A DNA stretch of 64,000 nucleotides. Origin: Escherichia coli (GTDB lineage: Bacteria; Pseudomonadota; Gammaproteobacteria; Enterobacterales; Enterobacteriaceae). The notes beneath the pieces are model-generated. The model searched no databases, was not told the DNA's origin, and was given only the letters and a program-made list of their open reading frames with translations. The translations under genes and the position numbers were made by a program. Positions 8,078 through 49,063 of this stretch are shown piece after piece (positions within the stretch are counted from its first letter, which is position 1; every line of letters starts with the position of its first letter). The DNA is taken from NCBI RefSeq assembly GCF_009931435.1, contig NZ_CP043414.1; one strand, written 5' to 3'.

Positions 8078-8929
8078 GTGTTAATTATCGAAACCCTGCC
8101 GTTGCTGCGTCAGCAAATTCGCCGCCTGCGAATGGAAGGCAAACGCGTGGCGCTGGTGCCTACTATGGGTAACCTGCACGATGGTCATATGAAGCTGGTC
8201 GACGAAGCCAAAGCCCGCGCCGATGTGGTCGTCGTCAGTATTTTCGTTAACCCGATGCAGTTTGACCGCCCGGAAGATCTGGCTCGTTATCCACGCACTT
8301 TGCAGGAAGACTGCGAGAAACTAAACAAACGTAAAGTGGATCTGGTTTTCGCTCCCTCGGTAAAAGAGATCTATCCGAACGGTACAGAAACCCACACCTA
8401 TGTCGATGTTCCAGGCCTTTCCACCATGCTGGAAGGTGCCAGCCGTCCAGGACATTTTCGCGGCGTATCGACCATCGTCAGCAAACTGTTCAACCTGGTC
8501 CAGCCGGACATCGCCTGCTTCGGTGAAAAGGATTTTCAGCAACTGGCACTGATCCGCAAAATGGTTGCCGATATGGGCTTCGATATTGAGATTGTCGGAG
8601 TGCCGATTATGCGCGCGAAAGACGGTCTGGCGCTCAGTTCCCGTAACGGCTATCTGACGGCGGAACAACGTAAAATTGCGCCGGGTCTGTACAAGGTCTT
8701 AAGTTCAATTGCCGACAAATTGCAGGCTGGCGAACGGGATCTCGATGAAATTATTGCTATTGCCGGGCAAGAATTGAATGAAAAAGGTTTCCGTTCCGAT
8801 GATATTCAGATTCGCGATGCCGACACCTTGCTGGAAATCGCTGAAAACAGCAAACGAGCGGTGATTCTGGTAGCCGCCTGGCTTGGCGATGCTCGCCTGA
8901 TCGACAACAAAATCGTCGAACTGGCGTAA
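8078..8929 (+). CDS. panC: Pantoate--beta-alanine ligase (pantothenate synthetase)
   Basis: 283 aa, [37 protein letters not shown]; GTG start at 8078. Confidence 0.97.
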
Positions 8930-8947
8930 TACTTATACTCTAAATAA

Positions 8948-9062
8948 TTCAAGTTGCAGGAAGGCGGCAAGCGAGTGAATCCCCAGGAGCTTACATAAGT
9001 AAGTGACTGGGGTGAGCGAACGCAGACGCAGCACATGCAACTTGAAGTATGACGAGTATAAC
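8948..9062. repeat. ERIC (enterobacterial repetitive intergenic consensus) element
   Basis: Contains ERIC core GTGAATCCCCAGGAGCTTACATAAGTAAGTGACTGGGGTGAGCG flanked by inverted repeat AAGTTGCA...TGCAACTT; lies between convergent panC and rpnC. Confidence 0.85.
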
Positions 9063-9149
9063 TGGCGCTACGGCTGATGGCGCCAATTATTAATTTGCCC
9101 CACATCATGGCGATGACGTCTGTAAGCGATTATTCATATCGCAGGCAAT

Positions 9150-45767: not shown

Positions 45768-45783
45768 GTTTCAAGAGTTAGCT

Positions 45784-48489
45784 TTATTGCAGGCGACCGT
45801 GGCACTGCTTGTATTTTTTACCAGAACCGCACGGGCAAGGATCATTACGTCCAACTTTGCGTTCACCGGTTTGTGCCGCCAGTGCAGCTGCGGCTGCAGA
45901 GTCATCATCCTGATGGCTAAGCTGCTGCATTTGCGCTAAACGCTCGGCTTCCATACGACGCTGTTGTTCCAGCTCTTCAACCTCTTCAGGCATACGTACC
46001 TGGACTTTGCTCAGCGTGCTGATGACTTCATATTTCAGCGACTCCAGCATCGCTGCAAACATGGAGAACGATTCACGTTTGTATTCCTGCTTCGGATCTT
46101 TCTGTGCATAGCCACGCAGGTGGATACCCTGACGCAGATAATCCATCGCCGCCAGGTGCTCTTTCCACAGGGAGTCAAGCGTTTGCAGCATGACGCCTTT
46201 CTCGAAGTGACGCATCATCTCAGCGCCAACCACTTCTTCTTTACGCTGATACACTTCGATGGACTGCGCCAGAATACGCTCACGCAGCGTCTCTTCATGC
46301 AGTTCTGGCTCTTTGTCCAGCCACTCGGCAATCGGCAAATCGAGGTCGAAATCGTTCTTCAGACGTTCCTGCAGCCCCGGAATATCCCACATTTCTTCCA
46401 GCGACTGCGGCGGAATGTAGGCATCGATGGTCGCTTTGAACACATCTTCACGAATGCTGTTGATGGTATCGCTCACATCGCTGACATCCAGCAGTTCATT
46501 ACGCTGGGAGTAAATAGCGCGACGCTGATCGTTAGCCACGTCATCATATTCCAGCAGTTGCTTACGAATATCGAAGTTACGGCTTTCAACTTTACGCTGA
46601 GCGTTGGCAATCGCTTTGGTCACCCACGGGTGCTCGATGGCTTCGCCTGGTTTCATACCCAGTTTACGCATCATGCCGGAAACACGGTCAGAAGCAAAAA
46701 TACGCATCAGCGCATCTTCCATCGACAGGTAGAAACGGGAAGAACCGGCATCCCCCTGGCGCCCAGAACGACCGCGTAGCTGGTTATCGATACGACGAGA
46801 TTCGTGACGTTCTGTACCGATGATATGCAGACCACCTGCAGCCAGTACCGCATCGTGACGCACCTGCCAGTCGGCTTTGATTTTTTCAATTTGCTCTGCG
46901 GTCGGATTTTCCAGCGCGGCAACTTCTGCCTGCCAGCTACCACCGAGCACAATATCTGTACCACGACCCGCCATGTTAGTCGCGATAGTCACCGCCGCCG
47001 GATAACCCGCTTGTGCAACAATCGCTGCTTCGTTAGCGTGGAATTTGGCGTTCAGAACGTTGTGTTTGATACCGGCTTTGGTCAGCTCGTTTGACACCAA
47101 TTCCGATTTTTCGATGGAGATAGTACCCACCAGCACTGGCTGGCCCTTCGCAGTACGCTCTTTGATATCTTCGATGATCGCCTGGATTTTTTCCGCTTCA
47201 GTCATATAGACCAGATCTGGCAGATCTTTACGAATCATCGGACGGTTGGTTGGAACAACAACGGTATCCAGCTTGTAGATTGAGCTAAATTCGAAAGCTT
47301 CGGTATCAGCAGTACCGGTCATGCCCGCCAGTTTTTCATACAAACGGAAGTAGTTCTGGAAGGTGATCGACGCCAGCGTCTGGTTTTCGTTCTGGATCTG
47401 TACACCTTCTTTCGCTTCCACTGCCTGATGCAGGCCATCGGACCAGCGACGTCCCTGCATGGTACGACCGGTGTGTTCATCAACGATGATAACTTCACCA
47501 TCTTTAACGATGTAGTCTACGTCACGGGTAAACAGTGCGTGAGCACGCAGCGCCGCGGTTACGTGGTGCATCAGCATAATATTAGCCGGAGAGTACAGCG
47601 ACTCACCTTCATCCATGATGCCTTCTTTCACCAGCAGCTCTTCGATCAGCACCAGACCACGTTCGGTCAGGTTCACCTGGCGAGATTTTTCGTCCACCGA
47701 GAAGTGGCCTTCGCCCTGGAAGGTTTCGGAGTCTTCTTTTTCCTGACGGATCAGGTGCGGAATAATTTTATTCACGCGTTTATACATTTCCGAGCTGTCT
47801 TCTGCCGGGCCGGAAATGATCAGCGGTGTACGCGCTTCATCGATCAGGATGGAGTCCACTTCGTCCACCAGCGCATAGTGCAGTTTACGCTGTACACGTT
47901 CTTCAGGGCTGAACGCCATGTTATCGCGCAGGTAGTCAAAGCCGTATTCGTTGTTCGTACCGTAAGTGATGTCAGCTGCGTAAGCTTCACGCTTCGCCGG
48001 TGCTGGCATACCCGGCAGGTTGATACCGACAGTCAGGCCAAGGAATTCAAACAGCGGACGGTTGTTTTCGGCGTCACGTTGCGCCAGGTAGTCGTTGACG
48101 GTAACAACGTGTACGCCCTTACCGGTTAATGCGTTCAGGTAAGCAGGCAGCGTTGCGGTCAGGGTTTTACCTTCACCGGTACGCATTTCCGCGATGCAGC
48201 GTTCGTTAAGAACCATACCGCCGAGTAACTGAACGTCGAAGTGACGCATACCAAAGACGCGCTTACTTGCCTCACGCACCACAGCGAAAGCTTCTGGGAT
48301 CAGATTTTCCAGCACTTCGCCTTTTTCCAGACGTGCACGAAACTCTGCGGTTTTCCCTTTCAGTTCTTCGTCGGAGAGTTTTTCCATCTCCGGTTCCATG
48401 GCATTGATGATGTTGACGACTTTGCGCATCCGGCGCAGGGTGCGATCGTTACGACTACCGAAAACTTTAGTTAATAATTTGATTAGCAT
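45784..48489 (-). CDS. secA: Preprotein translocase ATPase SecA
   Basis: 901 aa, [25 protein letters not shown]; C-terminal zinc site [14 protein letters not shown]. Confidence 0.97.
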
Positions 48490-48550
48490 AATAAAATCTC
48501 AAACGCCCCGCGTTGCGGAGTCAATAAAATGAAGTAAAGGTTTATTGTTG

Positions 48551-49063
48551 TTAGCTGAGGCGTTGAGGGCCAGCACGGATGCCTTGCGCCTGGCTTATCC
48601 AGACGGGCGTGCTGAATTTTGCTTGTGGGGTAAAATGCGCATAATCAATGCGATAACCCTTTTCAGACGGCGTGCCTTCCTGGGTCAACAGCGCGCTGAG
48701 CGTATCCAGTAATGCAAGATGTTGCGCCTGAAGAGGCAAAGATTCTTCAGCAACGGGCAGCGTTTGCGGTGCCATTGCGAAGGAAAGATGACGGATTACC
48801 GTGCGAATGGCATGTTGATGCCAGTAATCAACGGAATAGTTCGAATTCGGGCGGCGCGTGTTCGCTTCCAGCATGGCCAATTGACCAAAGTTAACTTTGG
48901 CTGAAGGCTCGTGGTTGCGGGTTGTCGCTTTTGCGGGCGCGTTTGGTTCGGCGGCGTTGCTGAGCGCAGGCAAACCTAAACTCGCCGCGACCATCCCTAA
49001 TAAGAGATGCGGCCAGAAGTAGCGTTTACCAAACTGTCGCCAGCGCGTCAGTATTCCACTCAC
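48551..49063 (-). CDS. secM: Secretion monitor (SecM) arrest peptide regulating secA
   Basis: 170 aa from (V/M)[34 protein letters not shown]; GTG start; C-terminal arrest motif [17 protein letters not shown]. Confidence 0.9.
48566..48616 (-). other. SecM ribosome-stalling motif (FxxxxWIxxxxGIRAGP) coding segment
   Basis: Encodes [17 protein letters not shown] at residues 150-166 of secM, 4 codons before the stop. Confidence 0.85.

Follow-up and report, generated by a model that had tools for sequence, protein, structure and literature searches.

Several described systems bear on Escherichia coli genes that do not begin with ATG. Such starts are a regular part of the E. coli gene set: in a 2026 N-terminomics study, 60 of the 688 confirmed annotated starts (8.7%) are non-ATG, consisting of 50 GTG and 10 TTG codons (PMC13245402). 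In the polyamine modulon, polyamines stimulate UUG- or GUG-dependent initiation of cya, spoT, cra, uvrY, frr and gshA; when gshA was given AUG in place of its UUG, basal synthesis rose 3-fold and was no longer stimulated by polyamines (PMC4405209). In acnB, the site at which the small RNA (sRNA) RyhB pairs is the translation initiation region; RyhB blocks the 30S toeprint, and repression is lost in the 'mutstart' RyhB mutant (PMC4150767). Here, we analyse the start codons in a 64,000-nucleotide stretch of E. coli DNA (from contig NZ_CP043414.1, assembly GCF_009931435.1; hereafter, the window), in which five genes—panC, speD, acnB, secM and murE—begin with GTG or TTG. All five are, with very high probability, ordinary near-cognate bacterial start codons.

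The window is a segment reversed relative to positions ~92.8–156.8 kb of E. coli MG1655. It belongs to an Escherichia strain other than MG1655, and an 8-kb piece of it shows 96–98% identity to essentially all of the 5,426 complete E. coli genomes. The starts that RefSeq annotates in the matching region of MG1655 were each placed on the window by BLAST. The result agrees with a first-pass annotation of the window, which had assigned the starts of panC to GTG 8078–8080 (+), speD to TTG 21456–21458 (+), acnB to GTG 25422–25420 (−) and secM to GTG 49063–49061 (−); in each case the translation of the named protein (PanC, SpeD, AcnB or SecM) lies directly downstream. The four entries of that list stand, but the list is not complete: murE, outside the span that it covered, begins at GTG 63602–63600 (−) and is the fifth non-ATG gene. 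The MG1655 counterparts (panC, b0133; speD, b0120; acnB, b0118; secM, b0097; murE, b0085) have the same start codons and the same first 15 residues. Within the 25 nt upstream of the five starts the window matches MG1655 apart from one substitution 5' of secM, and identity around the starts is 97–100%.

The same five non-ATG starts are found in the MG1655 annotation and in the one that NCBI gives for NZ_CP074749.1, which is the closest complete genome. Besides panC, speD, acnB and secM, 44 MG1655 genes were mapped, and all of these begin with ATG except murE (43 ATG). Seven fimbrial genes at positions 1–7200 all have ATG starts in the NZ_CP074749.1 annotation. Overall, the 56 genes of the window comprise 51 with ATG, four with GTG and one with TTG. 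At 8.9%, the non-ATG frequency is the ordinary E. coli background, with no excess. Curated E. coli annotation already gives the non-ATG starts of these genes; they are correct, and they are ordinary.

To examine ribosome-binding sites, pairing with the 3' end of 16S rRNA was scored for all in-frame ATG, GTG and TTG codons from the upstream stop codon up to +40 codons. The panC coding sequence (8078..8929 (+), 283 amino acids) follows the Shine–Dalgarno (SD) sequence TAAGGAG at 8064–8070, which shares the panB stop codon TAA (8064–8066) and leaves a 7-nt spacer. The layout at speD (21456..22250 (+), 264 amino acids) is similar: its SD, TAAGGAG at 21438–21444, shares the speE stop codon TAA (21438–21440), which is in frame with speD at −6 codons, and the spacer is 11 nt. 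The acnB coding sequence (22825..25422 (−), 865 amino acids) has GAGGAG at 25430–25435 and a 7-nt spacer, while secM (48551..49063 (−), 170 amino acids) has a weak SD-like GGGATGG at 49071–49077, and murE (62115..63602 (−), 495 amino acids) shares 14 nt with the 3' end of ftsI. Pairing energies at the non-ATG starts are −8.7 kcal/mol for panC, −9.1 for speD, −8.9 for acnB, −6.5 for secM and −8.0 for murE. In all five genes the non-ATG codon, at a workable spacing, has stronger SD:anti-SD pairing than any competing in-frame codon; this holds even for secM with its weak SD. Mean SD pairing is −8.6 kcal/mol for the five non-ATG genes versus −6.3 kcal/mol for the 51 ATG genes (one-sided Mann–Whitney p = 0.009, small sample), and the stronger SD at non-ATG genes fits compensation for a weak start codon.

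In-frame ATGs do occur around four of the starts: at codons −9/−7 or −51 of acnB, Met19 of panC, Met24 of secM (the old geneX-type start) and Met25 of murE. None has a usable SD. The best rival in-frame start of any kind pairs at −5.9 kcal/mol, and the in-frame ATG rivals range from +1.9 to −3.1 kcal/mol; their spacers are 15–17 nt for five of them and 9–10 nt for acnB +26 and murE +24. In speD, there is no in-frame ATG before codon 177.

Protein family profiles place the N-termini at, or within three residues of, the GTG and TTG codons, and cover residues that ATG starts would lose. Position 1 of TIGR00018 is PanC residue 1; position 1 of TIGR03331 is SpeD residue 3; position 1 of TIGR00117 is residue 52 of a 916-amino acid acnB open reading frame (ORF), which is the GTG codon; position 1 of NF002799 is SecM residue 3 (residue 54 of a 221-amino acid secM ORF, in which the GTG is residue 52); and position 2 of NF001123 is MurE residue 4. 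All five are full-length equivalog matches that score above the cut-off: 432 bits vs 212.75 for PanC, 491.9 vs 255.8 for SpeD, 1714.7 vs 1287.2 for AcnB, 230.4 vs 100 for SecM, and 896.9 vs 586 for MurE. The Pfam SecM model PF06558 does begin at Met24 (ATG 48994–48992 (−)). The secM start was revised, and an extended signal peptide defined, by Sarker, Rudd and Oliver in 2000 (known from the title, as listed in PMC6340945), and our own reading is that PF06558 preserves the pre-2000 start assignment; NF002799 covers the revised N-terminus. Two proteins of solved structure have the lengths that the GTG starts imply: Protein Data Bank (PDB) chain 1IHO (E. coli PanC, starting MLIIETL) has 283 amino acids, and 1L5J (AcnB) has 865; the AcnB of the window differs from the latter at, for example, E41D and I75V. 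A search at E <= 1e-10 returned no PDB structure match for the E. coli-type SpeD (S-adenosylmethionine (SAM) decarboxylase proenzyme). Length variants of SpeD in the databases were considered as start errors and rejected; they are C-terminal frameshifts.

The start codons are also conserved beyond E. coli. Loci of panC, speD and acnB in other genera of the Enterobacteriaceae were collected in one scan of species-representative genomes, based on the neighbouring Gcd protein and 10-kb flanks; six secM loci were fetched via predicted homologues. All 16 other panC loci have GTG, and the nearest in-frame stop lies at −2 codons; a Met at codon 19 is confined to Escherichia and Pseudocitrobacter. For speD, TTG is present in all 16 Enterobacteriaceae loci, 15 of which have a stop at −1 to −6 codons. 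The speD TTG also occurs in Yersinia, Photorhabdus, Erwinia and two gammaproteobacteria outside the Enterobacterales: a Permianibacter-like genome and, at a slightly shifted position, a Marinobacterium-like genome. It is conserved in all of the 20 speD loci counted in the comparison. All 12 acnB loci have GTG. The secM start is GTG in six loci, including those of Salmonella, Citrobacter koseri, a Raoultella-like genome, Yokenella and Enterobacter soli, and TTG in one (a metagenome-assembled genome); two genera have a stop at −1 codon. Between codons 2 and 16 of panC and speD, 13–14 of the 15 third positions vary, as do all columns of the upstream spacer, whereas the start codons are invariant. 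SecM is conserved across genera from SGILTRWRQ on, residues 2–23 being kept as protein with synonymous DNA changes; the predicted extensions upstream of this point are unrelated between genera (E. coli; Salmonella, MRGISGGND-V-SGIL; Enterobacter, ...AYVVEQ-V-SGIL). A four-codon mini-ORF (ATG GCA ATA ACG TGA, 49061–49075 (−)), which is out of frame and ends on the secM GTG, was set aside; it is not conserved in the Raoultella-like or Yokenella loci and is probably due to chance.

In public annotation, the Erwinia speD gene (L092 1201–1209; cluster P0126, 573 member sequences) begins at an ATG that precedes the TTG by two codons. This ATG is separated from the SD by only 3 nt, and the TTG by 9 nt, the distance typical of the family. 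Because of this difference in spacing, the annotated ATG is probably a mis-start that reflects a bias towards ATG.

How might initiation at these codons proceed? The 30S subunit would be positioned by an SD 7–11 nt upstream of the start codon. At the first codon position, the initiator fMet-tRNA (anticodon CAU) reads GUG by a G–U pair and UUG by a U–U mismatch, so that Met is the first residue of all five proteins. Near-cognate initiation is less efficient than initiation at AUG. The genes fall into two groups. Firstly, panC, speD and murE are internal operon genes, in which the SD overlaps or abuts an upstream stop codon (panB, speE) or sits inside ftsI. Because of this placement of the SD, coupling to upstream translation probably helps initiation at all three. 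Their layout is like that of coupled operon junctions in which the SD lies over the upstream stop: panB-panC has TAAGGAG and an 11-nt gap, speE-speD has TAAGGAG and a 15-nt gap, and ftsI-murE a 14-nt overlap. Secondly, acnB and secM are the first genes of their transcripts, and the acnB GUG is predicted to lie inside the region where RyhB, an iron-stress sRNA, pairs to block 30S binding. A lower initiation efficiency of the five genes is inferred, as would be any selective reason for keeping their non-AUG codons; near-cognate starts lower the efficiency of initiation and can serve as regulatory handles.

The first-pass annotation had named N-terminal proteomics and initiation profiling as ways of checking the starts. 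For panC this check is positive: b0133 is listed as a GTG start with both an N-terminal peptide and Ribo-RET support (Tables S1 and S2 of PMC13245402). In the data examined, an N-terminus or initiation footprint at the codon was found for panC only; N-terminal sequencing has reportedly also been done on the SpeD beta chain (Anton and Kutny 1987; Tabor and Tabor 1987) and on AcnB (Bradbury and colleagues 1996).

Several points count against treating all five starts as equally secure. The MG1655 and PGAP annotations are independent neither of each other nor of the NCBIfam profiles. In the examined part of the N-terminomics table, acnB, speD, secM and murE have no entry, and panC alone has direct N-terminal evidence (PMC13245402); possibly, the N-terminal tryptic peptides of these four are too short. 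None of the five gene names occurs in the supplements of a tetracycline ribosome-profiling paper, and literature searches on acnB with GTG and on speD with TTG or UUG returned nothing relevant. In the Escherichia speD gene, the 11 nt that separate AGGAG from the TTG exceed the usual optimum for an SD spacer. The acnB ATGs at −9/−7 codons are in frame, and on the mapped mRNA, in Escherichia and several other genera, which leaves formal room for a minor, N-terminally extended AcnB.

The region upstream of acnB warrants closer description. A simple ORF extends acnB by 51 codons, to ATG 25575–25573 (−153). This false extension (25423..25575 (−)) is made up of the 5' untranslated region (UTR) and the promoter. 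The only promoter-like site in the upstream region consists of a −35 element TTAACA (25553–25548 (−)) and a −10 element TATTCT (25530–25525 (−)). This pair places the inferred transcription start site (TSS) at ~25518, that is at −96, in agreement with a TSS that was mapped at −96 and independently confirmed (Table 1 of PMC2760140, citing Cunningham 1997). Because the TSS and the promoter lie downstream of it, the −153 ATG is absent from the mapped mRNA. Further downstream, the 5' UTR contains two in-frame ATGs as ATG ACA ATG, at −9 (25449–25447 (−)) and −7 codons (25443–25441 (−)), which made them the obvious candidates for initiation at an ATG. In Citrobacter (loci L004 and L005), Kluyvera (L018) and locus L072, a 1-nt indel (an extra base) shifts the frame of the upstream ATGACAATG motif away from that of acnB, and there is a stop at −7 codons. 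The one-base shift and the stop imply that the ATG ACA ATG motif is not coding; it was therefore rejected as a coding start, being conserved as DNA but out of frame in four genera.

Around the acnB start, from about −30 to +27 (window 25395–25452 (−)), there is almost no variation among 11 distinct sequences representing several genera, and the invariant stretch includes synonymous sites of codons 2–9. Codon 2, which is kept within it, is CTA (Leu), a rare Leu codon in E. coli. The pattern of conservation indicates a constraint that would act at the RNA level. The same stretch coincides with a predicted RyhB duplex and with AGAAGAAUA, an (A-R-N)-type stretch that could bind Hfq.

Of the alternatives to ordinary near-cognate initiation with no special role, the one that survives best is that the non-ATG codons are non-neutral and were selected for gene-specific regulation: the acnB GUG for pairing with RyhB, and the speD UUG, with its strong SD, for low or polyamine-responsive output. 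We regard this as a tentative possibility. The invariance of the start codons next to variable synonymous and spacer sites is in its favour, with the caveats that purifying selection acts on start codons generally, so that conservation by itself does not prove a regulatory role, and that the compared loci are phylogenetically related.

For acnB, the predicted RyhB pairing region extends from −21 to +6 on the mRNA (25417..25443 (−)), as computed with MG1655 RyhB. It contains an 8-bp helix, GUCGUGCU:AGCACGAC, in which the GUG lies. Changing this codon to AUG or UUG lowers the predicted stability of the duplex from −24.7 to −18.9 kcal/mol (a loss of 5.8 kcal/mol for AUG), and 4 of 500 shuffled targets pair equally well. 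These values are computed predictions that ignore intramolecular structure; they come from a restricted calculation, used in place of a full-length RyhB:acnB calculation that gave an unrealistically long duplex. Repression by RyhB pairing across the ribosome-binding site has been demonstrated experimentally for acnB in the same region, with the loss of repression in 'mutstart' in line with the alternative, and the start codon falls in the helix by prediction (PMC4150767). The passages of that paper used here mention neither GUG nor 'start codon'; RyhB pairing may help to keep this codon GUG.

For speD, the UUG is shared by at least five families of Gammaproteobacteria. Its SD in most Enterobacterales is extended and matches almost perfectly (AGGAGGTGA); the pairing energy is −16 to −21 kcal/mol vs the window-gene mean of −6.5, and the extended SD, AGGAGGUGA, is fused to the speE stop codon. 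The genes of the polyamine modulon share with the five genes here an inefficient near-cognate start; however, none of panC, speD, acnB, secM or murE is a reported member, a literature search found no paper linking speD to UUG, and a polyamine response of speD is speculation. That the weak start is a selected regulatory feature in these two genes—setting a fixed low SpeD:SpeE ratio or conferring a polyamine response in speD, and central to the RyhB helix in acnB—strikes us as doubtful. If it were so, an AUG at acnB would weaken repression under iron starvation, and synthesis of SAM decarboxylase would either respond to polyamines, as in other UUG-start genes, or be set low relative to SpeE. The side observations on speD and acnB amount to two cheap, testable hypotheses.

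Dual initiation, in which GTG or TTG is the main start and extra in-frame starts give rise to minor proteoforms (such as an AcnB with nine additional residues in Escherichia, or a PanC beginning at internal Met117), is unlikely, and is compatible with the assignment of the GTG and TTG starts rather than in contradiction with it. In PMC13245402, a second, internal panC initiation is reported, with a peptide, at ATG +116, and alternative in-frame starts are common (118 of 806 start sites). The internal panC site is codon 117, at 8426–8428 (+) of the window, and would yield an N-terminally truncated PanC proteoform. Eight of the 12 acnB loci have the upstream ATGs in frame, but these ATGs have no SD, and their frame is not conserved; the N-terminomics data examined contain no peptide from an extended AcnB.

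Least of all survives the idea that translation really begins at in-frame ATGs and that GTG and TTG are an annotation convention, which is highly improbable: such ATGs exist, those at −9/−7 of acnB lie on the mapped mRNA in conserved DNA, and PF06558 starts at Met24 of SecM, but they have no usable SD, the −51 ATG of acnB is upstream of promoter and TSS, in four genera the −9/−7 pair has lost the frame and a stop occurs at −7 codons, most genera lack Met at panC codon 19 and a peptide from the panC GTG is reported, SecM residues 2–23 are conserved as protein, the family profiles cover residues that would be lost, and speD offers no ATG before codon 177.

With the five codons taken as ordinary near-cognate starts, the behaviour of simple gene callers can be compared. 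The first-pass annotation had stated that ATG-only or longest-ORF callers would mis-start its genes, and that its ORF track over-extends acnB by 51 codons. The over-extension is reproduced by a mechanical ORF list, which gives 22825..25575 (916 amino acids from ATG, vs the 865-amino acid AcnB). In the same list secM is, by coincidence, also 51 codons too long (48551..49216, 221 amino acids from TTG 49216–49214 (−), vs 170). A scan of the lpxC-secM spacer for a consensus promoter or terminator found nothing. The broader statement also holds, with a caveat on the longest ORF. An ATG-only rule is wrong for all five genes, whereas the longest ORF is wrong for acnB and secM and right for panC, speD and murE, in which it already begins at the GTG or TTG. 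Over the whole window, the longest-ORF rule (ATG, GTG or TTG) is right for 39 of 56 genes, with acnB and secM each displaced by −51 codons; the ATG-only longest-ORF rule is right for 44 of 56, displacing panC by +18, speD by +176, acnB by −51, secM by +23 and murE by +24 codons.

Such errors have consequences. A wrong start adds or removes sequence (51 codons gained by AcnB or SecM, 18 lost from PanC, 176 from SpeD), and buries promoters and 5'-UTR regulatory sites in false coding sequence. The lengths predicted for SecM in public databases, 154 to 225 amino acids, show that mis-starting occurs in practice. The main value of these results lies in annotation quality and in caution for gene calling; current understanding of the genes is unchanged.

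Some other features of the window are recorded here. Four regions match Rfam families above the gathering score: (i) PssrA at 51455–51544 (−), upstream of ftsZ, (ii) tp2 at 33805–33918 (+), antisense in the pdhR-aceE spacer, (iii) STnc40 at 45740–45808 (−), in the secA-mutT spacer, and (iv) ES036 at 18277–18318 (+), downstream of gcd. None of the four overlaps the start sites discussed above. In NZ_CP074749.1, speD and yacL are separated by a tetratricopeptide-repeat gene of ~1.1 kb (L089 22500–23591), which is absent from the window (22250–22650) and from K-12. The panB gene has a tandem ATG ATG at 7269–7274 (+), of which the annotation takes the second (7272), while K-12 has a single ATG; the panB start is ambiguous by one codon. 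Lastly, the fimbrial genes beside panB form a seven-gene chaperone-usher operon (1–7200 (+)). At the DNA level these genes lack a counterpart in K-12, and a blastn comparison of their 5' ends with the K-12 yad genes yielded no match. The operon is a rare allele: it is covered to at least 80% in 14 of the 5,426 complete E. coli genomes, the best match having 97.8% identity.

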